Positions 515 to 57,218 of a stretch of 64,000 bases of DNA are shown here, in pieces; positions within the stretch are counted from its first letter, which is position 1, and every line of letters begins with the position of its first letter. Origin of the DNA: a bacterium (GTDB taxonomy: Bacteria > Patescibacteriota > Saccharimonadia > Saccharimonadales > JAUPVS01); assembly GCA_029780855.1 (NCBI GenBank), contig JAKOXV010000003.1, positions 162,357 through 226,356 on the forward strand, written 5' to 3'. The notes beneath the pieces are model-generated. The model ran no database searches, was not told the DNA's origin, and was given only the letters and a program-made list of their open reading frames with translations. The translations under genes and the position numbers were made by a program.

Positions 515-1816
515 ATGAGTTTTCGAAGTTCTGTTAAGAAGGTTGTACCACGAGACGTCTTTAAGCGGGTCGAGCCATACGGTCACCTGGGCGAGGCGAT
601 GATCTACAGCGTAAAGAATGGATTTCCGGCAAAAGGCTTAAAGGTTATCGGCGTTACCGGAACTAATGGCAAAACGAGCACCTGTTTTTTGATCCATAAA
701 ATGCTGGTCAATAGTGGCATAAAAGCCGGACTCATGACTACGGTTGCCTATGGGGTTGGGGACGATATTCATCCGCAGATTGCCCATATGACTACGGTTT
801 CAGTGCCACTTCTACACCAACGAATAAAAGAGATGAGATCACAGGGCATGGAGTGGCTGGTGCTCGAGGTAACGAGCCACGCACTGGCTCAGCACCGGGT
901 GTGGGGCATTCCGTTTTCGGTGGCGGTCATGACCAATATCACGCATGAACACCTCGATTATCACGGAACGTTTGAACGGTACCGAGATGCCAAAAAAATG
1001 CTCTTTACCCAAACTAATCGGAACAAAAAAGGACTCCAGATTGGCATTGCCAACGCTGATGACCCGAGTGGTCAGTTGTTTGCGGGGGCCGTACGTAACC
1101 CCGTGCTCTATGGTATGAATAACGGTGATCTGCGGGCAAAGAACGTAAAACTCACGCCCGCAGGCAGTACGTACACCGCCGAAATCGGCGATGCGGAGCT
1201 GAATGTTACCTGCCATCTTCCGGGTAGCTTTAACGTCTATAACTCGCTGGCGGCGGTTGCGGTTGGCCAGGCGGTGGGGCTCACTCAGGAACAGATAGAG
1301 CAGGGAATTGCGGCGCTTGAAGGAGTAGAGGGACGTATGACCCGCATTACCGAAGGCCAGGATTTTGACGTTATCGTAGATTTTGCTCATACCCCCGATA
1401 GTTTTGAAAAGCTGTTCAAAGACCTCAAGCCGGTGGTAAAGGGCAAGCTCATCTGCATGTTCGGCTCTGCTGGGCGGCGGGATGAGGCCAAACGGGCGAT
1501 TCAGGGAGAACTGGCAGGGAAGTACTGCGATGAAGTGGTGGTGACCGAGGAGGATGATCGAGATATCGATGGATTGGAAATCATGAATCAAATAGCTGCG
1601 GGCGTCGAAAAAGCCGGCAAAACCCGCGATACAGACCTGTTTTTAGTACATGACCGTACTGAAGCCATCAATTTTGCTATCAAACGGGCCAAAAAAGGCG
1701 ACACCGTGATACTGCTCGGCAAAGGCCATGAAAAGACTATAGAACGTGCCGATGGCGAACATCCCTGGGATGAAATTGGTACCGCCAAAGCAGCGGCTGC
1801 AAAAGCTGCTGCTTAG
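515..1816 (+). CDS. murE: Mur ligase family protein, MurE-like UDP-N-acetylmuramoyl-tripeptide synthetase
   Basis: P-loop GVTGTNGKTST. Mur ligase middle and C-terminal regions are present (HTPDSFE, DDRDID resembling the DNPR motif, GKGHE). It is divergent from tsaD. Confidence 0.72.
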   Translation: MSFRSSVKKVVPRDVFKRVEPYGHLGEAMIYSVKNGFPAKGLKVIGVTGTNGKTSTCFLIHKMLVNSGIKAGLMTTVAYGVGDDIHPQIAHMTTVSVPLLHQRIKEMRSQGMEWLVLEVTSHALAQHRVWGIPFSVAVMTNITHEHLDYHGTFERYRDAKKMLFTQTNRNKKGLQIGIANADDPSGQLFAGAVRNPVLYGMNNGDLRAKNVKLTPAGSTYTAEIGDAELNVTCHLPGSFNVYNSLAAVAVGQAVGLTQEQIEQGIAALEGVEGRMTRITEGQDFDVIVDFAHTPDSFEKLFKDLKPVVKGKLICMFGSAGRRDEAKRAIQGELAGKYCDEVVVTEEDDRDIDGLEIMNQIAAGVEKAGKTRDTDLFLVHDRTEAINFAIKRAKKGDTVILLGKGHEKTIERADGEHPWDEIGTAKAAAAKAAA

Positions 1817-2595
1817 CGACCGTAGTGCTTGTATAGCTTTTGGCGGGCGTTCTGGCTTAAGCCAGTGATAGTATCAAACTTGTCTTTTTGCATATCGGGG
1901 TAGCTTTTTCGCAAACGCCGGTATTCGTCGGGGCTCATTTTACCGGCAACATGAACAGCGGGGATTGAATCGTCGTCTTCGGCAATTTCTTCGCGGTACT
2001 TTTTGGCGAGCATGCCTTGCCACAGACGGCGAGGGTTGAGCTTCAGATCTTTATCGGTCTCATGGTACACTTCGGCGCCGTACTCATCGTACTCAATGAA
2101 TATCTTCTTTGGTATGCCAGAACCCTTAGCACCATAGCGTAACAGGTTCAGATCCTGGAAATCAGCAAACAGCTGCTCGAGTATCGATTTTCGATCTTCA
2201 TCAGGTAGTTCAATTAAAGAGTGCACCGTTTGGCCGGTACTAGTATGAACGTCATCACGCTCCATGCGCAACGAAGCGATTCCCATGGCTACGTATAGCT
2301 GGCTGAATGCACCGCGCATGTCCAAAAATTTTTCACGGTACTCTTCGCCAAGCTCAGTGCCGATATATTCCGCAACATCGCCCTCAACGCCAATCGGGTG
2401 ACCGATAGCCATAAGGCGAGCCCCGCCATCAATGAAGCCTTCTGCTTCTTCGCTCAGCAGTTGCGCAACTGTTTGCTGCTCTTCGCTGCGACGACCGGTG
2501 TAGTGAATCTGCTCCTCTTGGTATGCCTGACGAATGGTGTTGAGGTAGCCTTCACTATCTATGGGTTGGTGGACCGTTTCGGGGGTTTGTTCCAT
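1813..2595 (-). CDS. hypothetical acidic protein, 260 aa, family not recognised
   Basis: Long ORF with codon usage consistent with neighbours. It lies immediately downstream of the amidinotransferase-fold gene on the same strand. Its stop overlaps the murE stop convergently. Confidence 0.5.
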   Translation of the reverse strand: MEQTPETVHQPIDSEGYLNTIRQAYQEEQIHYTGRRSEEQQTVAQLLSEEAEGFIDGGARLMAIGHPIGVEGDVAEYIGTELGEEYREKFLDMRGAFSQLYVAMGIASLRMERDDVHTSTGQTVHSLIELPDEDRKSILEQLFADFQDLNLLRYGAKGSGIPKKIFIEYDEYGAEVYHETDKDLKLNPRRLWQGMLAKKYREEIAEDDDSIPAVHVAGKMSPDEYRRLRKSYPDMQKDKFDTITGLSQNARQKLYKHYGR

Positions 2596-2659
2596 GTATA
2601 TATTCTAACACAAAATAGTAAAAAAGTAAACATTAGTATTATAGACACGACCTGATGAT

Positions 2660-3511
2660 CTATCTATTTTTTACGGTCAGGGTGGTGCAGCGTATGTAAC
2701 CGCCACCTTTGGCGAGCTCTGAAATCTGAGGAGTGACGGTTTTGAGCCCTTTTGCTTCTATGGCAGCGCGTAACTTGGGAGCGTGAGCACTCATAACTAC
2801 CGTTTCACCCGTGGACACGAGGTTGCAGGCGAACCCTTTGGTAGCCTCCTGGTAGCTGACCTCTATTGTATCGATATCTACCGAGCGGATTTTTGCTTGG
2901 CTTTCTGGCGTGAAGGCTTCTGGGCACCAGGCGATGAGGTTAGGGGTGAGCACGGAGAGTGCCAAATCTATATCGTAAAAAAAGCTATCCGGCCAGCCGG
3001 TAACGGTATTGACGAGCGGTTTGCCCGATTGGTCGGTGTAGGGAACCGTTTCTAGACCAATAACGGTGAACCCAAGGTGTTTAGCTAGGAAATCATGCAT
3101 GCGTTTATCGGTGCGGTAGGTGGTGCCACAAAACAGCAGGTCACCACAGGGCAAGGCATCGCCTTGGCCACTGAAACGATACGGAGCTTCAATGACCTCC
3201 AAATCGAGGTTTTCGAGCGTTTGTTTGGCATAGGGCTGTTCGGCTTGCCGCTTATTGGGGAGTGAGGACAACACCGCAACGCCGTTACGGCACAGGCCCC
3301 AGTTGGCAGTGTAGACGCCGTCTTGACAGTCTTTGGGCGCCTCCACCTGCTTTACGGTTACGCCTGCATTCATCAGGGCAGTGCGAATGGCGGCATGCTC
3401 TTGATTGGCCTTTTCGCTATCGATCGCCACGGATTCATCCATGTAGGGGTTAATGGCAAATTCGTCACTAAAGTATTGTGCACTGGACATCAGCACCGTT
3501 TGGTTAATCAT
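2660..3511 (-). CDS. guanidino-group modifying enzyme fold protein (DDAH / amidinotransferase / arginine-deiminase superfamily)
   Basis: C-terminal GGGYIRCTTL matches the catalytic GGGxxxC[MT] cysteine motif of the superfamily. At 283 aa it is closer to DDAH size than to an ADI of about 410 aa. Confidence 0.6.
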   Translation of the reverse strand: MINQTVLMSSAQYFSDEFAINPYMDESVAIDSEKANQEHAAIRTALMNAGVTVKQVEAPKDCQDGVYTANWGLCRNGVAVLSSLPNKRQAEQPYAKQTLENLDLEVIEAPYRFSGQGDALPCGDLLFCGTTYRTDKRMHDFLAKHLGFTVIGLETVPYTDQSGKPLVNTVTGWPDSFFYDIDLALSVLTPNLIAWCPEAFTPESQAKIRSVDIDTIEVSYQEATKGFACNLVSTGETVVMSAHAPKLRAAIEAKGLKTVTPQISELAKGGGYIRCTTLTVKNR

Positions 3512-3530
3512 TGGTTGGTATTATACAAAA

Positions 3531-3550
3531 AAACCGCCGATTGGGGCGGG
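3531..3550 (-). terminator. candidate intrinsic terminator for the GC-rich minus-strand gene
   Basis: ccgcc-gattgg-ggcgg hairpin, preceded on the plus strand by an A-run (a T-run on the minus strand). Confidence 0.4.
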
Positions 3551-3720
3551 GAATAACGAGGCAATTTGTGGGAGGTTGGGGCTTGGAAATGGTTATGTAT
3601 GCGCGAAAGAATGGAGCGAAGTGGCTCTAAAACATTCTCTGGCTAACCAGATCCAAGCCCGGAACCGGGACGGGGTTCTCGACGTCGTTGTCGAGAAACC
3701 GCCGTCCGGCTGTCCGGGAA

Positions 3721-4104
3721 CTACCCGCGGTTGAAGGGGTCGTGCGACGCCTCGATGACCTCCAAGGGGTTGTAGGCCATGGCCGAGAAGACGTCGTGCC
3801 TGCTGGTGATCAGCCGGTCGAGGTCCTCGTCGCTGAGGCTGGAGAGGTGCGTGTTGACCTCATCGATCCAGCGGCCGGCGGAGGCGTTCGGGTTCTTGAC
3901 CTCGGGGTCGAACACGAGCTCGACTCGGGCGTTCTCGGCCTGGCTGTTGACGACCAGGACGATGCCCTCGATGCCTTCGGCGATGTTGCTGTACAGCATC
4001 TTCATCATCTCCGTGGGGATCTGATCGGACCAGATCCGCACTCGTGCTGCGCCCTTCATGCCAGGTGCTGACCCGGCGTGGTGAACCAGAACGGATTCCA
4101 GCAT
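3721..4104 (-). CDS. hypothetical protein in a high-GC segment, about 127 aa counted from MLESVLVHH; the ORF track gives 3721..4173 with an AT-rich N-terminal extension
   Basis: Third codon positions are almost all G/C, a high-GC codon pattern unlike the rest of the window. A GC-type hairpin GTTCTCGAC/GTCGAGAA lies just downstream at about 3676-3700. No family is recognised. Confidence 0.55.
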   Translation of the reverse strand: MLESVLVHHAGSAPGMKGAARVRIWSDQIPTEMMKMLYSNIAEGIEGIVLVVNSQAENARVELVFDPEVKNPNASAGRWIDEVNTHLSSLSDEDLDRLITSRHDVFSAMAYNPLEVIEASHDPFNRG

Positions 4105-11721: not shown

Positions 11722-12402
11722 ATGAGCAAAATCGTTAAGAGTAGCAAGCGGTTTATTCTAACCCTGGCGGCATCAAGTGTGGTCAGCATCGGCTTTTTAC
11801 TGGTACGGGTGCTCAGTACGCACACCGCTACCTACTGGTTCCTAGCATGGAATCTCTTGTTGGCTTGGTTGCCGCTGCTGTTTAGCTGGTGGCTGGTTCT
11901 GCGCTTACCAAACCGCCGCTGGTTTTCGCCCCTAAACGTTTTGCTCACCATCCTGTGGCTTGGGTTTCTGCCAAACACGTTTTATATAGCGAGTGACATT
12001 ATTCACCTTAAGGCAACCGGTGGTATCAGTATTTTGTTTGACGTAACAATGATGTTGTCATTCACTTGGAACGGCTTTTTGCTCGGATATACCAGCGTCT
12101 ATCTGATACATCAACAGCTCAAAAAGCGTTTAGGAAGGTATGAAGCGCATTCGCTCATTGCTTTTGTGTTTCTGCTCGTAAGTTTTGCCATCTATCTGGG
12201 GCGATATCTACGCTGGAACAGTTGGGACGTACTCATTAATCCTGCGGGCTTGTTGTTTGATGTGTCCGATTCTTTTGTGAACCCTTCTTCACATCCAAGG
12301 GCCTTTACCACTACGCTGATGTTTTTTGTGTTGACTACTAGTATCTACGCCGTCGGCTACCAGCTTGCCGCTAGCGTAAGTGCTGCTCATGAAACTGAAT
12401 AA
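11722..12402 (+). CDS. polytopic membrane protein of unknown function (possibly DUF1361-like)
   Basis: Multiple hydrophobic helices. Family assignment is a weak recollection. Confidence 0.5.
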   Translation: MSKIVKSSKRFILTLAASSVVSIGFLLVRVLSTHTATYWFLAWNLLLAWLPLLFSWWLVLRLPNRRWFSPLNVLLTILWLGFLPNTFYIASDIIHLKATGGISILFDVTMMLSFTWNGFLLGYTSVYLIHQQLKKRLGRYEAHSLIAFVFLLVSFAIYLGRYLRWNSWDVLINPAGLLFDVSDSFVNPSSHPRAFTTTLMFFVLTTSIYAVGYQLAASVSAAHETE

Positions 12403-12423
12403 TCTGCTATACTGACATCTGTT

Positions 12424-14103
12424 ATGAATTATCTTGTGGAGCTGTTAACCACTGCCTGTGACAACTTGTTTGGCGTTACTGAAACGCCCGTGCTTACACG
12501 TCCGGATGAGCAATTTGGTGACTATGCCACCAACCTTGCCCTCCAGCTCGCAAAGCCCTTGGAGCAGCAACCTCGGCACATAGCAGAACAGCTAAAAGCC
12601 TATATTGAATCAAATGGTGATGTTCGGATTGCGCGTGTAGATATCGCAGGTCCGGGTTTTTTGAACTTTACAATCGCTGATAGTGAGTTTGCCAACATGT
12701 TGGCGGGGATTGATGAAAAGCCGGGTCTGTATGGTCGCAACAAGTTATTTGCCGGCAAACGGATCGTTATTGAAACCAACAACCCCAACCCATTCAAGGA
12801 GCTTCATATAGGCCATGCCTACAATATTATTATTTCCAATTCGATCGCGAACATCTTGGAGGCGGGTGGGGCAGAAGTGCACCGAGTAAGCTATCACGGT
12901 GACGTGGGCCTACATGTTGGTAAGAGTATGTGGGCTATCCTGCAGTACGTGGGCAAAAACCCCAAAAAACTAGCTGACGTTCCTGAATCCGAACGTGCCG
13001 GTTTTTTGAGTAAGATGTACGCCAAGGGCGCTAAAGCCTACGAAGATGACAAGACATCAAAAGCGGCAATCGATGCACTTGCTAAGGAGAGTTTTGAGCT
13101 TGATGACCCACTGTACAAAGAGGTCTATGAGACCTGTAAGGCCTGGAGTTTTGAATACTTTGACGCTATGTTTACTCGTCTCCATTCAAAACGGGTAGAG
13201 AAGCGCTACCTTGAAAGGGACATGGACGAGCTGGGCAAAGAGCTGGTCATGAGTCATGTCGGTGATGTTTTTACCGAAAGCGACGGGGCAATTATCTACG
13301 AGGGTGAAAAAGATGGTTTGCATACCAGAGTGTTTATAAGCAATCGGGGAACGACCCTGTACGAAGCCCGGGATTTAGCGCTCGCCATTCAGAAAGAGCA
13401 GGACTTCACCATGGATGAATCAATCGTGGTGACCGCCAATGAACAGGCCGAGTACTTTAAGGTGGTGTACGCCGCTATGGCGAACTTCAACCCCGTACTA
13501 GCAAACAAGTGCACCAGTATTCCACATGGGGTCGTAAAGCTGACGACCGGTAAAATGAGCAGCCGTACTGGCGACGTTATAAACATAGCGTGGTTGTTTG
13601 ATAGTGTAGAAGTGGCCATGAAGCAGAAGGGCTATGAGAGTGAAGCGGCTGCAGACAATCAGTTTGCAGCTATCGCGTACCTGTTCCTGAAGAACCGGGT
13701 CGGGGGTGATGTAGTGTTTGACCCGAACGAAAGTGTCAGTTTAGAGGGAAATACCGGTCCCTACCTGCAGTATGCCTACGCTCGTGCCCGGAGCATTTTG
13801 CGGAAAAGCGAGATGGAAGCCGCGTTTAGTGACAACATCACTTTTGAAGCCGGTGAGCGCTCGCTACTACGTAAAGTAAGTGAGTACCCGGAAGTAGTAG
13901 AACGTGCCATCGTTGATCACATGCCTCATCACATTGCCACCTATCTGTATGAATTAGCCCAGGTATTCAATCGTTTTTACGAAAAAAACCGGATTATTGA
14001 TGATGAAAGGGAAGCGCTGAGGCTAAGTCTGATCAAAGCCTACGCTACGACGCTTGCGAATGGCTTAGAGCTGCTTAATATACCGGCACCGGAAAAAATG
14101 TAA
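12424..14103 (+). CDS. argS: arginine--tRNA ligase
   Basis: HIGH motif (ELHIGHAYN), KMSSRTG (KMSKS variant), C-terminal DALR-type anticodon-binding region, 559 aa. Confidence 0.9.
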   Translation: MNYLVELLTTACDNLFGVTETPVLTRPDEQFGDYATNLALQLAKPLEQQPRHIAEQLKAYIESNGDVRIARVDIAGPGFLNFTIADSEFANMLAGIDEKPGLYGRNKLFAGKRIVIETNNPNPFKELHIGHAYNIIISNSIANILEAGGAEVHRVSYHGDVGLHVGKSMWAILQYVGKNPKKLADVPESERAGFLSKMYAKGAKAYEDDKTSKAAIDALAKESFELDDPLYKEVYETCKAWSFEYFDAMFTRLHSKRVEKRYLERDMDELGKELVMSHVGDVFTESDGAIIYEGEKDGLHTRVFISNRGTTLYEARDLALAIQKEQDFTMDESIVVTANEQAEYFKVVYAAMANFNPVLANKCTSIPHGVVKLTTGKMSSRTGDVINIAWLFDSVEVAMKQKGYESEAAADNQFAAIAYLFLKNRVGGDVVFDPNESVSLEGNTGPYLQYAYARARSILRKSEMEAAFSDNITFEAGERSLLRKVSEYPEVVERAIVDHMPHHIATYLYELAQVFNRFYEKNRIIDDEREALRLSLIKAYATTLANGLELLNIPAPEKM

Positions 14104-15905: not shown

Positions 15906-16529
15906 TTACTGGATTGTTTTGATCAGGAGCGTCGCTTGATCGTACAGTTTTTTGAGGAGTACTTTTTCGCTCTTGCTGTTAGTGGCTTTGTATTCGGTCG
16001 AGAGATCGCTTTGGTAGCCGGTGAGCTGAGTTTTTAGGGTGCTTTTAAGGGCATCGTCAAATTGCCCCGCTGAATTAGCGGTGTTTAGCGCCTGATCGGT
16101 AGCTTTGTTTGCGCCGAGAGCTAAGGTCTTTGAGCTTGGTTTTTTGTTGTGCTTCGTAATGTATGCCACTGTCTCTGCCTGTGCAGTTGTAAGTGTTAGC
16201 TTAGTGTTTTCATTGATGGCAGCGGCGTCTGATCCTCGGACGTACCGAGTGCCAATCTCGGTGATTCTTAGTATTTCGGTTTGATCTTGGGCGACTTTTA
16301 TCAATCCTTTGGTTGAACTCCCACCGCTACTGAAAATTAGTACCATTATGATGATAAAAAGCAGCAACACACCGCCAACTAGGGACATGAACAAAGTGGC
16401 ACGTTGCTTGGGCGAATTACCGGTAGGCAAAATTGAACGCTTTTGTTTAGGTGGTCCCTGTAGAATGAAATCGTAGGGATTTTGCCCATCACTCGGAAAC
16501 GATGGAGGCACTTGTTGGTTTGGTGGCAT
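15906..16529 (-). CDS. hypothetical membrane-anchored protein (Pro-rich N-terminus, one TM)
   Basis: ORF with a single hydrophobic helix. It is divergent from dnaG. Confidence 0.5.
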   Translation of the reverse strand: MPPNQQVPPSFPSDGQNPYDFILQGPPKQKRSILPTGNSPKQRATLFMSLVGGVLLLFIIIMVLIFSSGGSSTKGLIKVAQDQTEILRITEIGTRYVRGSDAAAINENTKLTLTTAQAETVAYITKHNKKPSSKTLALGANKATDQALNTANSAGQFDDALKSTLKTQLTGYQSDLSTEYKATNSKSEKVLLKKLYDQATLLIKTIQ

Positions 16530-16589
16530 GGCACTATTTAAGCATATGCAGCATGGTTATGACCAGATAGCGTACAATATTCACCAGAT

Positions 16590-18347
16590 ATGGATGCAGT
16601 CGAGGAGATCAAGCAGCGGTTGTCTATAGAGGACGTGCTCAGTGAGTACGTCGAGCTAAAACGTGCCGGGCGGAACTTTAAGGCGCTCAGCCCCTTTAGT
16701 AACGAAAAAACCCCTAGCTTAATGATTAGCCCCGAAAAACAGATTTGGCACGATTTTTCATCGGGTAAGGGCGGGGATATGATCAGCTTTGTAATGGAAA
16801 TGGAGGGGCTGGACTTCAAGGGCACGCTGGAGCTATTGGCCCGCAAGGCAGGGGTAGACCTGAGCCAGTATCAGAGAAGCAGCGGCGGCAACGCCAAGCT
16901 CAAGAAGCGGCTGGAAGAAGCGCATGAGCTGGCCACAAAGTTTTACCAGACCCACCTTACGCAGAATCCGGACGCTATCAATTATGTGTTCAAAAAACGG
17001 CGCATAAACAAAGAAACGGCGTTAGCGTTCAAAATCGGCTACGCACCGAACAATGGCAGTGCACTCACAGATTTTTTGATTAAAAAAGGATTCACCGCTG
17101 ACGAACTGACAAAAGCCGGCCTCTCTACCCGTCGCTCAGGTAGGCCGAGCGATATGTTCCGCGGACGAATCATGATACCGCTAATGGATCCACAAGGTGT
17201 GGTGATTGGATTTACGGGGCGTATCTTGGCTGATGTTCCCAATGCTCCCAAGTATCTCAATACCCCGCAAACACTGCTCTATGACAAAGGTCGACACGTG
17301 TTTGGGTTGCACTTGGCCAAGGAAAAAATCCGCAAAACTAAATACGCCGTGGTAGTGGAAGGGAACATGGATGTGGTGGCGAGTCACCAGGTTGGTGTCA
17401 CTAATGTCGTTGCTACCGCAGGAACGGCCATGACGGAGCACCATTTGAAAACGTTAGCTCGGTTCGTGCATGACGTGCGATTAAGTTTTGATCAGGACAA
17501 CGCCGGTATTGCCGCAGCTGAGCGGGTGATACCCTTGGCAAGTAAAACAGGGGTTAGTTTGAGTATTATTACTATTCCAGGGGCCAAAGATCCCGATGAA
17601 CTCATCCAGGCTGATCCAAAAAAATGGCAAGCTGCTATTGAGACGCCACAGTACGCCCTAGACTGGTTGATTGATCAGTATAAAAGCCGCTTAGATCTTG
17701 ATACGGCTCCTGGAAAACGTGAGTTTAGTGACGTCATTCTGGCGGTTGTGCGGACACTGCAGGATAGCGTAGAACAAGATCACTATTTGGGTACAGTTGG
17801 AAAAATATTGGGAGTTAGCAAAGATGCTTTGGCTACCAAACTGGTCGCTAAACCGGAAACTAAACGGCTCAAGCGGCACGTAGAGCTTGCGCCGCTTGAT
17901 CCGCTCCACGCCGAAACCGTGAAGAGTGAAAACCACTTTTTGTCGCTCGTGCTCATGGTGCCTAATTTACGCCCATTCTTACAACCACTGACCGAGGAAA
18001 TGTTTGTAGAAACTCAGTCATCGGAGCTGTATGCTTTTCTTACCCAAAATCCTGAGTTTTCGGGCACCAGTAAAGAGGTGGGGGGATTGAAAAACATCGG
18101 TCAGTATTGTAAAATGTTAGCATTACTCTATGAGGAACTCTATTCCCACCTCGAGTCTATAGAGCTTCGGTACGAAGCCGCTCGATTGCAGGTGCGCTTA
18201 ATAGAACGGTACGTGAAACGTAAAAAAGGTGAACTGGCCGAAAAAATGCGCCACGCCGACGAAACAGAAACGGGTACATTATTACAAAAAGCCAAGGCGC
18301 TCGACGCCTTGCTTAAGCTTACGCAAGAAGGAGAAGTGCATGGCTAG
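16590..18347 (+). CDS. dnaG: DNA primase DnaG (zinc-binding domain with ligands substituted, TOPRIM domain intact)
   Basis: N-terminal [37 protein letters not shown] aligns to the CHC2 zinc ribbon but carries Ser/Ser/Asp/Ser at the four ligand positions. TOPRIM motif VVVEGNMD...DQDNAG is present. Confidence 0.9.
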
Positions 18348-19464
18348 AAAAGCAGTGAAGAAAGCAAACCCAAGCGATTACGATGAAATTAAAGCTAAGC
18401 TAATCGCAAAGCACAAAAAAGCGGGGAAAATTGACCAACGTGAAGTCTTTCATAGCATCCCCGACACCCCGGAGAATATCGACGTCCTAGAAGGATTTTA
18501 TGCTGAGTTAACAGAGGCAGGTATTGAACTCATTGAAGCAACTGAGCCGAACGTGGAAGATTTTAGTGATGAGTGGGTAGAAGAAGATGATGAAGAGGAA
18601 ATCGTTCTCGATGACCAAACCTACCTAGATGACATTGCCGACGACTCCGTACGCCTATATTTGCGTGAAATTGGTAAGATCCCGCTGCTTACCGCCGAAG
18701 AAGAACTGGAGCTCGCACAGCGCGTGGTAGCCGGTGAAAAGGATGCCAAAGACAAGATGGCCGAGGCAAACATGCGCTTGGTTGTTTCGATTGCAAAACG
18801 CTATGTTGGCCGTGGGCTGGACCTTTTGGATCTTATCCAAGAAGGCAACACCGGATTGCTCCGCGCCGTTGAAAAGTTCGACCCGGATAAAGGGTTTAAG
18901 TTTAGTACCTATGCGACCTGGTGGATTCGTCAGGCTATCACCCGGGCTATCGCTGACCAGGCGCGTACGATTCGTATCCCCGTGCACATGGTAGAAACCA
19001 TTAACAAATTGCTCCGGACACAGCGTCGCCTCACCCAGGAATTGAACCGTGAACCTACCAATGATGAAATCGCCAAAGCGATGGAGATTGACGTTGATAA
19101 AGTTGAGCACATCATGAAGATTAAGCAAGATATATCCTCATTGGACGCCTCGGTTCGTGATGATGAGGAAGATTCTGTACTCGGCGACTTTATTGAGGAC
19201 GAAGACACTGTAACCCCCGAAGAGGCAGCCACCGGGCAGCTACTAAAAGAGCACGTCAAGGATATGCTCGGTGCCCTGACTGAGCGTGAGCAAAAAATAC
19301 TAAAACTTCGTTTTGGGCTGGAAGATGGCAAGAGTCATACACTTGAAGAAGTGGGGCAAGAATTTAGCGTGACCCGTGAACGCATCCGCCAAATAGAAGC
19401 CAAAGCACTAGCGAAACTACGAAAGCACAAAGACGCTCGCAAGCTGCACGATTACATCAAATAA
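18340..19464 (+). CDS. rpoD: RNA polymerase sigma factor RpoD (sigma-70 family, regions 1.2-4)
   Basis: Regions 2.4/3/4 are conserved ([27 protein letters not shown]..., [18 protein letters not shown]). ATG at 18340 after RBS AAGGAGAAG overlaps the dnaG stop. Confidence 0.93.
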
Positions 19465-21193: not shown

Positions 21194-21463
21194 GTGACTG
21201 GACCAAGGATTCCCATAGAGTCTGGCATGGATGATAGCTGGCGCGAAGAAGCTGCCTGTAATGATATGGGTCCTGAGTATTTCTATGCCGACAAAGACAG
21301 TCCGGAGTATGAATTTGCCAAGATTGTCTGTGGGAGTTGCGCAGTACGAGCTGAATGTCTAGATTTCGCCCTGGTTACCAGGGAGAAGTTCGGGATTTGG
21401 GGCGGCTATGACGAAAGAGAGCGGGGAAGAATGATCCGTCGCCGGCAAGTTTCGGCACTGTAG
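21194..21463 (+). CDS. whiB: WhiB-like (Wbl) Fe-S transcription factor
   Basis: Four Cys in the Wbl spacing (AACNDMG ... KIVCGSCAVRAEC), the G[IV]WGG turn (GIWGG) and a basic C-terminus. GTG start with RBS GAAGGAGGGG. Confidence 0.85.
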   Translation: MTGPRIPIESGMDDSWREEAACNDMGPEYFYADKDSPEYEFAKIVCGSCAVRAECLDFALVTREKFGIWGGYDERERGRMIRRRQVSAL

Positions 21464-32192: not shown

Positions 32193-33989
32193 ATGGACCA
32201 AAGCGTAAAACAACAGATTATTGATCGCTTAAAGACAGCGAACAATGTGCTGGTAACGGTGAGTACTAACCCATCCGTTGACCAGCTTGCTGCTTGTATT
32301 GGTTTTACCTTGCTCCTGAACCATTTAGGAAAACACGGCACCGCAGTGTTCAGCGGTGAAGTGCCCTCAACCATCGAGTTTTTGAAACCCGAAGAAACCT
32401 TAGAAACTAACACCAATTCATTGCGTGATTTCATCATTGCCCTTGATAAATCCAAAGCCGATAAGCTGCGGTATAAAGTAGAAGATAAGGTTGTAAAGAT
32501 ATTCATTACGCCGTATCGGACTAGTTTAAGCCAAGAAGACCTTGAATTTAGCCAGGGTGATTTTAATGTTGATGTAGTTCTAGCGTTAGGCGTTAAAGAG
32601 CGCCAAGATCTTGATAGTGCAATTACCAATCACGGCCGGATTCTGCATGACGCTACGGTTATATCCGTGAATAATCACGAACAAGGTGACTTAGGGACGA
32701 TCAATTGGGTAGATTTAAACGCTTCGAGTCTGTGTGAGATGCTCGTAGATGTCAGTAAGGGATTAACATCCGATAAAATGGATACCCAGATGGCGACAGC
32801 CTTCATGACGGGAATCGTAGCTGAAACGGATCGGTTCAGCAATGACAAAACTAGCCCGCGGACGATGACCTTATCAGCCGAACTGCTCGGAGCAGGCGCC
32901 AACCAACAGTTAATCGCCAGCAAGCTTGAGCCAGAGGTCAACTTGCAAAAGCCAGCGGCAGCCGCACCACAAGCCGAGGCAGCTGAACCGGCATCCGAAA
33001 GTGCTGACGGTTCCCTGAAGATATCGCATGAAGAAAAGCAGGAAGAACCAGTGGAAACCGAACCAGACGTCGCAGCAGAACCAGAGCCCGAGGCAGAGGC
33101 AGTTCCAAGCAGCACAGCAGACGAAGAACCTGAACTAAAACTACCCGAGCCACCCAAGCCGAAAATTGGGAAGGCACGACCCACTGGTGAGGAGCCCTCA
33201 CACCTCCAAAATGCATCCAATATGGTGCTAGAACCCCCTACACTTGGTGGTCGCCTGACTGCTAATAGTGAACCGGAACACATGCATCTTGATCCTTCTA
33301 CAGACCCCCTAAGTACACCCTCTACACTTCAACACAAGATCCTAAACAGGGAAGGTGACGAGCCGGCTACATCATCAGTTCCAATCTCACCTCCACAACC
33401 GGCCAATCAGACGCTTACTAATTTAGAGAAAAACATCGGTAGTCCACATGCCGAACCTAAGCCTGAGCCACCTGCTATGCCCCCGAAAGCTCCTGAGGTC
33501 CCGCAGCCTAAGCCAGAGCCTACTGCTCCCCTAAAGCCGGAACCGCCAAAACCAGAACCCGTCATTCCCGTAGTGCCAGACACTCCGGAGCCTTCTGGGC
33601 CACCCGCAGAATCGGTGGATGATGCCCGGCAAGCTGTTGATCAGGCAATAAAAGCCGCCGGTGGAGATCAGACAACCCTTGATCCAATCGAAGCTCTCGG
33701 AGCACAGCCGGTAGATCTAAATCTTGGTCATCAATCGGGTCAAGAGCCTACTGTTCCGTCACCTCAGCGGGATAATACAGCTGATCAGGGTGATGATAAG
33801 GTGCCCACCGGGATGCCTGAACTACCAACCATGCCATTTCCGGGACCAATGCCTCCTTCGCCAACACAGGGGCCACAGTTACCCCCGAACCTAGTTCCCA
33901 ATAAACCTCCTGAAGATACATCCGGTAACAATGGCAGTTCTCCTACGCCTCCGCCGCCCGTTCCGCCGCCCATGACACCCTTCCAGTAG
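32193..33989 (+). CDS. NrnA-like DHH/DHHA1 phosphoesterase homolog with degenerate catalytic motifs and a roughly 350-aa Pro/Glu-rich disordered C-terminal region
   Basis: The N-terminal 240 aa align to NrnA blocks (NWVDLNASSLCEMLVDV, GIVAETDRF). DHH reads NNH, the DxD motif reads SVD, and GGGH reads GAGA. The rest is PEP/PKP low complexity. Confidence 0.7.
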   Translation: MDQSVKQQIIDRLKTANNVLVTVSTNPSVDQLAACIGFTLLLNHLGKHGTAVFSGEVPSTIEFLKPEETLETNTNSLRDFIIALDKSKADKLRYKVEDKVVKIFITPYRTSLSQEDLEFSQGDFNVDVVLALGVKERQDLDSAITNHGRILHDATVISVNNHEQGDLGTINWVDLNASSLCEMLVDVSKGLTSDKMDTQMATAFMTGIVAETDRFSNDKTSPRTMTLSAELLGAGANQQLIASKLEPEVNLQKPAAAAPQAEAAEPASESADGSLKISHEEKQEEPVETEPDVAAEPEPEAEAVPSSTADEEPELKLPEPPKPKIGKARPTGEEPSHLQNASNMVLEPPTLGGRLTANSEPEHMHLDPSTDPLSTPSTLQHKILNREGDEPATSSVPISPPQPANQTLTNLEKNIGSPHAEPKPEPPAMPPKAPEVPQPKPEPTAPLKPEPPKPEPVIPVVPDTPEPSGPPAESVDDARQAVDQAIKAAGGDQTTLDPIEALGAQPVDLNLGHQSGQEPTVPSPQRDNTADQGDDKVPTGMPELPTMPFPGPMPPSPTQGPQLPPNLVPNKPPEDTSGNNGSSPTPPPPVPPPMTPFQ

Positions 33990-37643: not shown

Positions 37644-38219
37644 ATGAGCAAACAGGACCAACTTGCAGCATTACGTGCATCGATCATTAAAAATAAGGTA
37701 TGTCCCGATCTGGCTTCCCAGGCGACCCAAGTGGTGTTTGGTGATGGAAATCCCGATGCCGACATCGTATTTATTGGCGAAGCCCCGGGTAAGAACGAAG
37801 ATTTGCAGGGCCTCCCATTCGTGGGAGCTGCCGGGAGGTTCTTTGACGAAATGTTGGAGTCTATTCAACTCAAGCGAAAAGATATCTACATCACCAACAT
37901 TGTAAAATACCGGCCGCCAAACAATCGCGACCCGCTACCAGAAGAAAAAGAGGAGTTCTTACCATACCTGCGTGAGCAGTTGGACATAATCAACCCGAAA
38001 ATGATTGTCACCCTAGGCAGGCACAGCATGGAGTGCTTCCTGCCCGGGTTGAAAATCAGCCAAGTGCACGGCCAACCCAAACGAAAGAACGGTAAGGTGT
38101 ACCTACCGCTCTTTCACCCAGCCGCAGCACTGTATAACGGCGGTATGCGCCAGACGTTACTAGACGACTTTGCGCGCATTCCGGCGATTATCAAAAAAAT
38201 TACTATCGAATCCAAATAA
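37644..38219 (+). CDS. uracil-DNA glycosylase superfamily protein, family-4-like, lacking most Fe-S cysteine ligands
   Basis: GEAPGKNED motif and ITNIVKYRPP (the family-4 consensus is CRPP). Only one of the expected four Cys is present. Confidence 0.78.
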   Translation: MSKQDQLAALRASIIKNKVCPDLASQATQVVFGDGNPDADIVFIGEAPGKNEDLQGLPFVGAAGRFFDEMLESIQLKRKDIYITNIVKYRPPNNRDPLPEEKEEFLPYLREQLDIINPKMIVTLGRHSMECFLPGLKISQVHGQPKRKNGKVYLPLFHPAAALYNGGMRQTLLDDFARIPAIIKKITIESK

Positions 38220-54361: not shown

Positions 54362-54841
54362 ATGGCAGCGGAAGTGAAATATACACGAGTGTCGTTTTGG
54401 CAACGATTGAAGCTTCAGGTGGGCAAGCTGTATGCGAACCATACAAAATTGAAGTTGTTGGCAACCGCATTGGTTATCCTTCTAGTCGTCGGCTTAATTG
54501 CGAGCGCTGTATATTCGAACTACAAGTCTCGTTCCAAAACCACAGTCGTCAAGCCAGTTACCACGGCGGACGTTATTTCTAACTTAAAAAAATCCTCGAA
54601 CGTGCCCACGATTCAAGAACGATACGATGCTCAAAAAGACAGTTTGCCGGACGGTGGTACCTACACCCAGAAGGATCTTGGTAACCTTATAGACATGGCG
54701 TTAGCCGCCAAGGCTCTCGGCAAAAAAGAAGAAGCAAAAACCTATGCTCAAGCGGCGCTGCCGTTAATAAATAAGAATGCCGAGTTCCAAAAACAGTATC
54801 CCGAGGTAGTAACTTCTATTAAATTGATTGCGAATAATTAG
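54362..54841 (+). CDS. hypothetical membrane-anchored protein, 159 aa
   Basis: ORF with a single TM helix. Confidence 0.45.
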   Translation: MAAEVKYTRVSFWQRLKLQVGKLYANHTKLKLLATALVILLVVGLIASAVYSNYKSRSKTTVVKPVTTADVISNLKKSSNVPTIQERYDAQKDSLPDGGTYTQKDLGNLIDMALAAKALGKKEEAKTYAQAALPLINKNAEFQKQYPEVVTSIKLIANN

Positions 54842-54845
54842 TACC

Positions 54846-57218
54846 ATGAAACTACTGCAGAATCAGTACATCAGTAAAACAAAAATCTACATGTTAATTC
54901 TCGGGTTGTTGAGTGTCATGCTGGGGGGTCACATTGCGTTCGGTAGTCCTTTAGTTGATGCCGCTCGAGATACTAGTTACGATTGCGAAAGGTACGTTCA
55001 TTACGGAGGTAGCACTTCGGTTCCTGGCGTGGGTACTTACCATGTTGTGCAATATGGCTTAAAAGGTAACGATGCAGCTCGTTGGCAGAACAATGATAAT
55101 GGGGCCATTATTGCTGATTCTGATCCTTCACCGTCAAATTACACTATTGATACTGGTCCTAACTTTGGCGATTGTGCTGCTGCGTTTGGGTATTCGCCCA
55201 TAGACTGTGACCCAAATAACGGAATCAATCTTTTTTGGGATTGTCTTGGTAACGTGCCTTTTACAAACTCATACTATAGAACTTTTTTTGGTGGATCACC
55301 TACAAAAGTGTACCTTGGAAGTGCAATAGCTCATCCTGATAACGTCGAGCACTACGAAAATAATCCAGCACTTGTGGATTCAGATTATTCTGACCCTACA
55401 AGGACGAATGCTGGGGTGACCTCGACACTACACTATCCCTTCGGTGATATAAACGACGCAGGTTTAGTAAACATTAATAATCAGAGGATTTGGTGCGTAG
55501 GTTTCGGTATCTTTTGCCGCCTCAACGCACTAACGGATGGAGCGGGAGGTAATCCTGCTGCGTGGGCTGGCTATCTAGATGCTGCACAATTTATTTCTAA
55601 TCCTACGGTTTCGCAGAATGCTATAGAGAATATTCCTAACGTTTCATATAGGGATGCGTTATTCAAAGGTTCTGGAGTGCCTGTGAGAGACCTGCATGAT
55701 GTGGGGCTGTTGGCCTCGGGTGCTACAAGCTTTCAACTAAGAATGTCAGGAGCAAACACACAAGATCCTTTTTTTGGTTGTTTAGCATCTACCGGTGTTT
55801 CTTGGGACAATGGACCAGCACCCAATAACTGTTATTCTGGTCATTTTTTGAATACAAAAGTAGCTACATACTTAACGTTTTTTGTCCCCGAAACAGCAAA
55901 CAACCCCTTTGACCCAAAGTGCGACAATATTTATCCGTCCCCAAGTAGTCCAGAACCCGGACAGTTGTTTAACATAACAGCAACCTTTAAAGACATCCAA
56001 AACATGCACAATAACGATATTAACTACCAGGCTCGGATCACAATTGATGGAACTAGTATTAACGACCGGTTGTTTGCTAACGGTAAGTTAAGCAAAACAA
56101 GCTCAGCACTGTCGGTGTCAAGCAATGATCCTAACTGGCTGAGTATTCCCACTGCCGGGCAGTATACCGGTAAAGTTACGCTTGGTCTCACGGGCCAAGA
56201 AAACAGGACGATTACCTGTCCGTTCGGAGGGAGTAATGAACCGCCTAAAATTCCCATTACAGCGAAACCGTACGTGCGGGTGTATGGTAATGACACCATA
56301 GCGGGTGGAAACTTTGCGAACACCAATGGGATATGTAGTGGACCTGACCCCAATCCTGATGCGTCTATTGCTACGTTTGCAGTCAATGAGAGTGGATGGA
56401 AGGGTAGTGGCGTAGAGTACGCCGCCTTTGCCATGGGGGCTATTATGGATAATGGCTTTATTAGTGCCAGTACCCACAACGGGGCTGCTACGGGTCCTAA
56501 GCTGGGCTTGACGTTTGGAAACTACCGGATGGGCAATGCGATGGTTAATGATTTTGGCGGGCTCAGTGGCATAAGTTCTTGCGCGCCAAATTACTATTCG
56601 CTCAAGTCTGCCAATGCTAGAAAAAGCCAAGCAGATAATATAAGTACTCTGATTAGCGCTAGCAACGAGGCGCTGGATGTTAACCCATCCAGTGGTAAAA
56701 CGATGATTAACGGAAGCTGGAGTAACATTTCTGGTAACCATGCCGTGTTTATAAACGGCGATCTGATTATTAACGATGACATTAGCCTTGCAAGCTTTAG
56801 CGATACTGATGTGAATGGAATACCTTCACTCTATGTGGTGGTGAAAGGAAATATATACCTAACCAACAAGGTAAAGCGTCTGGATGGAGTCTTTATTGCC
56901 CAACCAGATGGTAGTAGCGGCGGAACGATCTTCACGTGCGCAAAGCAGAATGCCACTACGTACACAATATCTGAACTATATGATAACTGCGGCAATCAAC
57001 TGATAGTTAACGGGGCGTTTATTGCCAATAAAGTTAGGTTTTTGCGCACGAATGGAACATTGAATGCCGCTGGTGTCGACGAGGCGCCAAGTTCGAACAA
57101 AATCGCAGAAGTGTTTAATTTTACTCCGAGTATCTATTTGGCAAAAAACCCTTACATAGTAATTCCTGACACTAAAGGCCAGAACAGCACAATAATTAGT
57201 TTGCCACCAATCTTATAA
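54846..57218 (+). CDS. large secreted Asn/Gly/Ser-rich protein (about 790 aa) upstream of the pilus locus; candidate surface/adhesin protein
   Basis: Signal peptide MKLLQNQYISKTKIYMLILGLLSVMLGGHIAFG, many Cys pairs and a beta-rich composition. Confidence 0.6.
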   Translation: MKLLQNQYISKTKIYMLILGLLSVMLGGHIAFGSPLVDAARDTSYDCERYVHYGGSTSVPGVGTYHVVQYGLKGNDAARWQNNDNGAIIADSDPSPSNYTIDTGPNFGDCAAAFGYSPIDCDPNNGINLFWDCLGNVPFTNSYYRTFFGGSPTKVYLGSAIAHPDNVEHYENNPALVDSDYSDPTRTNAGVTSTLHYPFGDINDAGLVNINNQRIWCVGFGIFCRLNALTDGAGGNPAAWAGYLDAAQFISNPTVSQNAIENIPNVSYRDALFKGSGVPVRDLHDVGLLASGATSFQLRMSGANTQDPFFGCLASTGVSWDNGPAPNNCYSGHFLNTKVATYLTFFVPETANNPFDPKCDNIYPSPSSPEPGQLFNITATFKDIQNMHNNDINYQARITIDGTSINDRLFANGKLSKTSSALSVSSNDPNWLSIPTAGQYTGKVTLGLTGQENRTITCPFGGSNEPPKIPITAKPYVRVYGNDTIAGGNFANTNGICSGPDPNPDASIATFAVNESGWKGSGVEYAAFAMGAIMDNGFISASTHNGAATGPKLGLTFGNYRMGNAMVNDFGGLSGISSCAPNYYSLKSANARKSQADNISTLISASNEALDVNPSSGKTMINGSWSNISGNHAVFINGDLIINDDISLASFSDTDVNGIPSLYVVVKGNIYLTNKVKRLDGVFIAQPDGSSGGTIFTCAKQNATTYTISELYDNCGNQLIVNGAFIANKVRFLRTNGTLNAAGVDEAPSSNKIAEVFNFTPSIYLAKNPYIVIPDTKGQNSTIISLPPIL

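Follow-up and report, generated by a model that had tools for sequence, protein, structure and literature searches.

All four zinc ligands are replaced in the DnaG primase of a saccharibacterium, as in most of its relatives

The dnaG gene in a 64,000-nucleotide stretch of contig JAKOXV010000003.1 (the window, in what follows) encodes a DNA primase from which, as its sequence reads, the canonical Cys/His zinc site of the zinc-binding domain (ZBD) at the N terminus is gone. The host is a saccharibacterium (class Saccharimonadia/Nanosynbacteria, Patescibacteria). The CHC2 zinc site is regarded as a defining, invariant feature of bacterial DnaG, and here a major lineage is without any of its ligands, a lineage that includes human oral TM7 species that are culturable and genetically tractable. 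We consider it probable, though by no means certain, that this is the sole, orthologous and functional replicative primase of its host, that a polar network with Asp55 at its centre has taken the place of its zinc site, and (the explanation being taken as a whole) that the zinc-less state is ancient and is held fixed by purifying selection in most of the phylum. The replacement residues vary less than the catalytic core does, and they recur independently in other lineages.

The ZBD aligns with that of B. stearothermophilus (Bst) DnaG (PDB 1D0Q) without gaps over 93 residues, at an offset of +6 and with 51% identity. This alignment places Ser34, Ser37, Asp55 and Ser58 at the positions of Bst Cys40, His43, Cys61 and Cys64. 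The second knuckle, canonically H-C-F-G-C-G, reads H-D-F-S-S-G. The domain contains no Cys at all, and the sole His of the ribbon core, His54, is conserved in canonical primases too. (The ligand pattern of PF01807, Cys-X2-His...Cys-X2-Cys, is absent despite a domain match well above cutoff: Zn_ribbon_DnaG covers residues 3-93 with 94.9 bits against a cutoff of 24.9, and positions 5-95 of the 98 in the model. A PF01807 match alone is unsafe ground for inferring zinc binding.) The original prediction had placed the replaced ligands at 16689-16763; its coordinates and residue calls are exact, the span running from ligand 1 to ligand 4, and the alignments to the zinc-finger model and to 1D0Q both confirm a primase ZBD in which all four ligands are replaced.

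The rest of the protein is that of an ordinary DnaG. The reading frame, on the plus strand at 16590-18347, runs through 585 codons without frameshift or interruption. The product matches the TIGR01391 dnaG equivalog model with 389.9 bits (curated cutoff 283.6; residues 3-404), and its Pfam matches follow in the order PF01807, PF08275, PF13155, PF10410, which is the full primase architecture of a ZBD followed by the RNA-polymerase domain (RPD) and a helicase-binding region. Its closest PDB sequence match is 2au3 (Aquifex ZBD and RPD; E 6e-59), 1D0Q being matched as well. The Toprim_2 match spans residues 254-339, and the acidic TOPRIM motifs E257-G-N-x-D261 (EGNMD), D301-x-D303 (DQD) and D334-P-D336 align with those of the Aquifex (2au3) and E. 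coli (1dd9) enzymes. These motifs are invariant in the best 120 homologues, a close set with 60-100% identity to the window protein. The C-terminal domain finds a weak structural match (Foldseek) in the helicase-binding domain of M. tuberculosis primase, 5z51. The full domain set and the invariant acidic motifs bear out the expectation that the TOPRIM core and the C-terminal region are intact.

The ligand state is not peculiar to this gene. The public collection contains an identical protein (P0001), and the source names of homologues are those of Candidatus Saccharimonadales and Saccharibacteria. The ligand quartet is S-[SGTNA]-D-[ST] in all of the best 120 homologues, whose ZBDs are likewise all without Cys; most members of the clade have no Cys in the entire protein. 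Ser34, Asp55 and Ser57 are invariant in this set and position 58 is Ser in 119 of the 120, a stretch of 16 residues being nearly invariant; position 37 varies among S, G, T, N and A, and in wider sampling also K, Q and H. A scan of a single genome for each GTDB species with a degenerate DNA pattern for IWHDF[ST][ST]xxGG gave at least 120 matches. Among the 120 listed, 118 are dnaG (42-73% identity to the window protein), and the 116 of these loci from which the full motif could be extracted all read S-[STGNAH]-D-[ST]. Nearly all the listed matches are labelled Saccharibacteria (Nanosynbacter, Nanogingivalaceae, Nanoperiomorbaceae, Nanosyncoccaceae, Saccharimonas). They include Nanosynbacter sp. 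TM7-087 and the complete genome of TM7-008, whose 581-aa reading frame has the quartet S-T-D-S and no Cys. The question that the original prediction had left for related genomes is settled in favour of shared substitutions by these two samples; the replacement itself stands, and what falls is its framing as a feature of a single gene, the state being phylum-wide and convergent.

Within this clade the altered domain is the part of the protein that changes least. The mean majority-residue fraction over the best 120 homologues is 0.90 for the ZBD and 0.93 for its ribbon core, as against 0.78 for the N-terminal subdomain of the RPD, 0.80 for TOPRIM and 0.57 for the C-terminal domain. Codon usage points in the same direction. 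At Ser34, Ser57 and Ser58 the AGY and TCN families are used in ratios of 103/13, 50/66 and 50/64 over the 116 listed species. These two families are two substitutions apart and both are used, which implies that Ser as an amino acid has been retained at these positions over a long period. Codon-family switching together with invariance indicates selection for the new residues rather than decay.

The zinc-type primase has not vanished from the group. When 1.84 billion cluster representatives were searched exhaustively with HMMER, the best 150 matches comprised 108 with the Cys-His-Cys-Cys set (CHCC), about 38 (of 147 representatives at 50% clustering) without any Cys/His ligand, and four intermediates that read S-[T/N]-C-S. 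Of the CHCC proteins the closest is P0136, which is 45% identical to the window protein and lies on a 48-kb contig (L001); the 120 proteins nearest to it divide into 11 CHCC and 109 zinc-less. A minority of Saccharibacteria-like lineages, to judge from these proteins, retains the zinc site. Some zinc-less dnaG genes are oddly labelled (Dormiibacterota, Bacillota, Limnocylindria or 'Pacearchaeota archaeon': L081, L107, P0108, P0282 and P0397); in sequence they are typical of Saccharibacteria or Paceibacterota, and the labels are probably binning or labelling errors. Three long representatives, P0157 (1028 aa), P0161 and P0210, have DnaG-like regions fused to other sequence, P0157 giving two separate DnaG-like alignments to the window gene.

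The same replacement is found outside the Saccharibacteria. One protein, P0188, and ten related clusters carry S-[H/N]-D-[S/A/L]; most of the named proteins near P0188, which are otherwise CHCC, bear the label Paceibacterota, Nealsonbacteria, Minisyncoccales or Parcubacteria. P0188 has the dnaG-rpoD pair in a neighbourhood that is otherwise unrelated, with rubrerythrin and desulfoferrodoxin. In a neighbour-joining tree of the RPD only (residues 100-419, the ZBD being left out; 200 bootstraps), the zinc-less Paceibacterota are monophyletic in 192 replicates and are joined to CHCC Paceibacterota in 185, and monophyly of all zinc-less proteins is recovered in none. In only three ZBD columns do both zinc-less groups have a common residue that is rare among the 32 CHCC relatives compared, namely Ser at 34, Asp at 55 and Ser at 57. 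Ser57 occurs in 25 of 25 and 7 of 7 proteins of the two zinc-less lineages and in none of the 32 CHCC proteins. By this tree, the same changes (Cys to Ser, Cys to Asp, Gly to Ser and Cys to Ser) arose independently in a Paceibacterota subclade. A third independent origin is probable in a Dojkabacteria-like lineage, where the zinc-less P0160 (S-Q-D-S) has in common with the CHCC proteins P0242 and P0244 the signature SPSLQIFK, P0244 being labelled Candidatus Dojkabacteria. Horizontal transfer of a zinc-less ZBD was considered and is ruled out by the lineage-specific flanks of the domain: the Paceibacterota have GANYRA...SFFVSPAKQ, and the Dojkabacteria-like pair has SPSLQIFK.

Possible routes to the zinc-less state can be made out. 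In P0134, P0233, P0262 (L124) and P0269, the last labelled Patescibacteria group bacterium, the third Cys alone is kept (S-[T/N]-C-S, with F-S-S-G following as 'CFSSG'). These DnaGs are candidate evolutionary intermediates that would be unable to hold zinc tetrahedrally. The S-H-D-S form of the Paceibacterota group retains the His alone of the ligands, and the existence of both S-x-C-S and S-H-D-S forms suggests that the same end state has been reached by different routes. (Neighbour-joining trees put the CHCC proteins P0135, P0136, P0143 and P0144 among the zinc-less proteins, but this placement is without support.) Whether zinc is structurally dispensable in primase, at least three Patescibacteria lineages having converged on the same metal-free solution under what would have to be selection, is in our estimate evenly balanced. 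If it is true, the selection may have been for a replisome that does without zinc, or without an oxidisable zinc-thiolate site, in ultra-small host-dependent cells.

The gene occupies the ordinary dnaG locus. The order in the window is msrB (14614), RNase T (15019), a minus-strand hypothetical gene, dnaG, rpoD, a kinase gene (19496) and polA (21480), and the rpoD start codon, ATG at 18340, overlaps the dnaG stop by 8 nt. Directly downstream of dnaG, rpoD is present in 77 of 118 listed loci (examined as 8-kb pieces) and also in L001. The contig of the CHCC protein P0136 reads msrB, RNase T exonuclease, YjbR, hypothetical (minus strand), dnaG, rpoD, AAA-type kinase and, further on, polA. Since this neighbourhood is common to both, the zinc-less gene is an ortholog of a zinc-type dnaG that changed in place. 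The dnaG-rpoD arrangement is the canonical one, as predicted. The minus-strand hypothetical gene stands at the same position in L001 and in Ca. Southlakia epibionticum (SEML1_0061). In the latter, published transposon-sequencing (Tn-seq) data list SEML1_0062 as the sole gene annotated "DNA primase" (PMC10633639 Table S1); it lies between the minus-strand hypothetical gene and rpoD (SEML1_0063), its 69-77 sites carry 0-1 insertions, and it is called essential at each of the three time points. The equivalog match, the intact motifs and the orthologous locus make the window gene almost certainly what it was predicted to be, a functional replicative primase.

Structure prediction, which the original prediction had proposed for the N-terminal domain, gives a zinc-ribbon fold. 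The full-length AlphaFold2 (AF2) model has a mean predicted local distance difference test (pLDDT) score of 87.8, matches 2AU3, 5guj and 3b39, and superposes its ZBD on 1D0Q with a template modelling (TM) score of 0.81; it dips to pLDDT 59 at residues 31-40. A ZBD-only model was made from a more diverse alignment of 69 sequences, CHCC relatives included, AF2 being blind to metal. It has pLDDT 91.7 and a predicted TM score (pTM) of 0.81, with the same five strands and helices, and superposes (Foldseek) on 1D0Q with TM 0.89 at 1.3 Å and on 2AU3 with TM 0.85 at 1.9 Å.

What a metal-free domain might look like can be stated as follows. The five-stranded zinc-ribbon fold and its DNA-reading surface would be kept. 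The tetrahedral Cys-His-Cys-Cys site has given way to Ser34, Asp55 and Ser58 with a small polar residue at position 37, and Gly57 has changed to Ser in addition. The carboxylate of Asp55 would accept hydrogen bonds from the hydroxyls of Ser34, Ser57 and Ser58, from residue 37 (for which Ser, Thr, Asn, Gln, Lys and His are conceivable donors) and from backbone amides of the knuckles, and this network of hydrogen bonds and salt bridges would join the two knuckles in place of the metal. The template trinucleotide would be read through the unchanged Ile52/Trp53 strand, and the ZBD would cooperate with the TOPRIM core on DnaB.

Several considerations weigh against this proposal. CHCC homologues are present in the alignment from which the ZBD was modelled, and the model consequently speaks for compatibility with the fold and not for stability without zinc. 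The network around Asp55 is drawn from the pattern of residues and from an analogy with adenylate kinase (described below), and a metal-free state is the best reading of the sequence evidence. A working metal-free ZBD is without experimental precedent in the primase family, and T7 gp4 from which the ZBD is missing cannot carry out template-directed priming. The S. epibionticum primase, finally, is taken to be zinc-less solely from the placement of that organism with Nanosynbacter in the G1 oral clade.

Two other accounts of the domain deserve consideration, each of them unlikely. One is that it still binds a metal through oxygen or nitrogen ligands, Asp55 acting with His54 or Glu39 and with Ser hydroxyls or water to hold Mg2+, Mn2+, Ca2+ or, weakly, Zn2+. 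Asp, which is able to bind metals, never varies at ligand position 3, His is kept at ligand position 2 in most of the zinc-less Paceibacterota (S-H-D-S), and Glu39 and His54 are invariant. The latter two are, however, equally conserved in CHCC primases, and so are not newly recruited ligands, and His54 and Asp55, as neighbours on one β-strand of the model, should face opposite sides. Moreover, position 37 is freely S, T, G, N, K, Q or A in Saccharibacteria, Lys and Gly cannot be ligands, and Ser hydroxyls are, by general coordination chemistry, poor ligands for zinc.

The other account, to which we give as little credence, is that the ZBD has been kept as a structure but reduced in function, specific template reading having been lost in favour of a relaxed or different specificity or of some other factor. 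Other DnaG-type primases need the ZBD for template-directed synthesis (PMC2910064); metazoan Twinkle lost its Cys ligands along with primase activity (PMC3610141); and the lower confidence of the full-length model falls at residues 31-40, within this domain. Against these stand the conservation of the ZBD above every other part of the protein within the clade, the invariance of the specificity residues Ile52 and Trp53 (mostly as in CHCC relatives), the intactness of all TOPRIM catalytic residues, unlike Twinkle, and the essentiality of the syntenic gene in the cultured relative S. epibionticum.

This second account touches on a further part of the original prediction, namely that without zinc the domain would bring about a different recognition of initiation sites. 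Bst Ile58 and Phe59 set CTA versus CTG initiation, as determined by mutagenesis (PMC8928506). Their counterparts here are Ile52 and Trp53, and most CHCC relatives in the same radiation also have I-W. Within the ZBD, systematic differences from those relatives are confined to positions 34, 55 and 57, together with 58 and 37. With its specificity strand unchanged there is no reason to expect altered site recognition, and the proposal is not sustained.

It is highly improbable that the gene is a non-replicative DnaG paralog with a canonical zinc primase encoded elsewhere. The search for a second primase covers 64 kb, and the contig is at least 241 kb long, which leaves some room for such a gene; in those 64 kb, tblastn with five canonical DnaGs found no second DnaG-like locus. 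The gene passes the dnaG equivalog model and holds the canonical dnaG-rpoD position in common with the CHCC ortholog, and the gene table of S. epibionticum has one primase, which is essential. CHCC primases on Saccharibacteria-like contigs are few (the 11 of 120 nearest P0136), and the synteny of P0136 marks it as the ortholog from another lineage rather than a co-resident paralog. A sequencing, assembly or frame error, raised with the original prediction, is refuted by the uninterrupted reading frame, the identical public protein and the hundreds of independent assemblies that agree on the same ligand state.

As to why the ligands were lost, two general causes were considered and set aside. 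Pooled medians of 0 Cys in zinc-less primases and 3 non-ligand Cys in CHCC primases might suggest general avoidance of cysteine, but the difference is gone once lineage is controlled: 4-7 other Cys remain in the zinc-less primases of Paceibacterota, and the Saccharibacteria-like primases that are CHCC have only 0-1 in any case. Retention of the other Cys in the zinc-less Paceibacterota argues that ligand loss was site-specific. Genome-wide loss of Cys metal sites is likewise rejected as a blanket explanation: the window, whose proteome is 0.68% Cys, has an intact WhiB, an intact Fpg zinc finger and an MsrB with both of its CxxC motifs. The original prediction had drawn a parallel with the family-4 uracil-DNA glycosylase (UDG) at 37644-38219 (plus strand; PF03167; closest PDB matches 4zbx, 1l9g and 1ui0). 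Loss of cofactor ligands is indeed observed there: aligned with 4zbx, three of the four 4Fe-4S cysteines are replaced (by N, by Y in NIVKYRPPNNR, and by F), C20 being kept. A causal link between the UDG and the primase is, however, speculative, given that the three proteins just named keep their Cys sites. Zinc economy, or removal of an oxidisable zinc-thiolate site, would fit the restriction to ultra-small host-dependent bacteria; these are offered as ideas only.

Coordinates of the features discussed are collected in Table 1.

Table 1. Features of the dnaG locus (window coordinates)
Feature	Position	Strand	Evidence or conservation
dnaG, DNA primase, 585 aa, single Cys in entire protein	16590..18347	+	TIGR01391, Pfam set, 2au3 match, AF2
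N-terminal zinc-ribbon-type domain (ZBD, residues 1-95), without Cys/His ligands	16590..16874	+	PF01807, AF2, Foldseek
Ser34 (AGC), ligand 1 (Bst Cys40)	16689..16691	+	Codon reading, alignment; invariant in best 120 homologues
Ser37 (AGT), ligand 2 (Bst His43)	16698..16700	+	S/T/G/N/K/Q/H/A within clade
Ile52-Trp53, aligned with initiation-specificity residues Bst Ile58/Phe59	16743..16748	+	Invariant in best 120 homologues
Asp55 (GAT), ligand 3 (Bst Cys61), proposed hub of polar network	16752..16754	+	Invariant in best 120 homologues and in every zinc-less lineage sampled
Ser57 (for knuckle Gly of CFGCG) and Ser58 (TCG at 16761-63; ligand 4, Bst Cys64)	16758..16763	+	Convergent G57S
RNA-polymerase domain, N-terminal subdomain (residues 118-244)	16941..17321	+	PF08275 (DNAG_N), 112.7 bits
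TOPRIM catalytic subdomain (residues 252-339); EGxxD, DxD, DPD intact	17343..17606	+	PF13155, 77.9 bits
DnaB_bind helical subdomain (358-412) and C-terminal helical domain (441-579)	17661..18326	+	PF10410, 40.9 bits; confident model helices
rpoD (primary sigma factor)	18340..19464	+	Sigma70 r1.1, r1.2, r2, r3, r4
Divergent upstream hypothetical gene	15906..16529	-	No Pfam match; position kept in relatives

Some further observations concern the surroundings of the gene. The antisense reading frame at 16538-16846 was rejected as a shadow ORF without support, and a promoter and terminator scan around dnaG returned counts equal to the shuffled expectation. In L001, two extra sigma-70-family genes (306 and 148 aa; 11866-13279) lie between the kinase gene and polA. 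The corresponding interval of the window has no extra sigma-70 genes and is occupied by a polyprenyl-synthase-like reading frame and a gene for a WhiB-family Fe-S transcription factor (PF02467, four Cys intact; 21194-21463, plus strand), which adjoins polA. Factors of the WhiB family are characteristic of Actinobacteria, on which cultured Saccharibacteria depend as hosts. Two large plus-strand reading frames elsewhere in the window, 54828-57218 (796 aa, 14 Cys) and 32193-33989 (598 aa), have no Pfam match at E<=1e-5.

Compared with the canonical DnaG ZBD (1D0Q, 2AU3, PF01807), the present domain has the same modelled fold of a five-strand ribbon and a helical bundle, the same position in the order ZBD-RPD-C-terminal domain and the same specificity strand; where the canonical domain has Cys, His, Cys, Cys and a knuckle Gly, it has Ser, Ser/Thr/Gly, Asp, Ser and a further Ser. 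Conversion of a structural zinc site into a polar network, Asp and Ser/Thr at ligand positions included, would make it resemble the LID of adenylate kinase, which is held by Cys4-Zn in many Gram-positives and by a His/Ser/Asp/Thr hydrogen-bond network in E. coli. Adenylate kinase differs in fold and as an enzyme, and the DnaG network is a proposal by comparison.

Loss of Cys ligands from zinc-ribbon ribosomal proteins was reportedly described by Makarova et al. in 2001. In the zinc-free ('C-') forms of L31, L33, L36, S14 and S4, ribbon Cys have been lost recurrently and function has been kept (PMC3087516, PMC5912738). C- ribosomal proteins are, however, often extra paralogs induced by zinc starvation, whereas the primase is the only annotated copy of an essential enzyme, and, unlike theirs, its replacement residues are invariant, convergent and fixed in most of the phylum. 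If the proposal is true, a replication enzyme joins the short list of zinc ribbons converted to a metal-free fold. The role of zinc in primase (structural, regulatory/redox, or in DNA reading) becomes directly testable.

Among primases, a parallel is found in metazoan Twinkle, a T7 gp4-like primase-helicase with a DnaG/TOPRIM-type module whose N-terminal ZBD is also without zinc ligands; when the ZBD model is matched to solved structures, this domain of human Twinkle, itself zinc-less, ranks third (TMq 0.49). Twinkle has lost catalytic residues and primase activity too (PMC3610141), whereas the catalytic core of the present DnaG is intact. DnaG/TOPRIM cores that function with no zinc finger are found in the ZBD-less 56-kDa T7 gp4, in TIGR00646 proteins of the Mycoplasma MG010 type and in archaeal DnaG. 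These proteins are missing the whole domain, and in T7 gp4 its absence abolishes template-directed priming (PMC2910064), the 56-kDa form being unable to prime; in the present DnaG the domain persists, and no other part of the protein is as well conserved.

Ligand-free remnants are seen in another setting. The two listed matches to the DNA pattern that are not dnaG, L006 (Rickettsia tamurae; 1773-4103, minus strand) and L003 (uncultured Rickettsia), belong to a 776-aa conjugative TraA/relaxase-associated Toprim protein with 'GIWHDFSTGDGGDLF', a Cys-free second knuckle of DnaG type, and no first knuckle. The NCBIfam models TraI_TIGR and PRK07078 weakly match residues 49-139 of the window DnaG. 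To go by these sequences, the primase-like modules of conjugative systems may often contain ZBD remnants that have no ligands. In a phage collection, a search with the ZBD gave 292 primase matches, all below 60% identity.

No report of a zinc-less DnaG was found in the full-text literature on primase/DnaG zinc, Saccharibacteria, Patescibacteria and the Candidate Phyla Radiation (CPR). In the structure-based annotation of S. epibionticum, the primase domain is entered as "CHC2 zinc finger" and "Rubredoxin-related". What is already known, then, is the loss of zinc-ribbon Cys in ribosomal proteins and the loss of ZBD ligands in metazoan Twinkle, where primase activity was lost as well. What is new is a sole replicative primase, essential in a relative and by its motifs catalytically intact, that has a conserved, convergent and ligand-free ZBD across a phylum.

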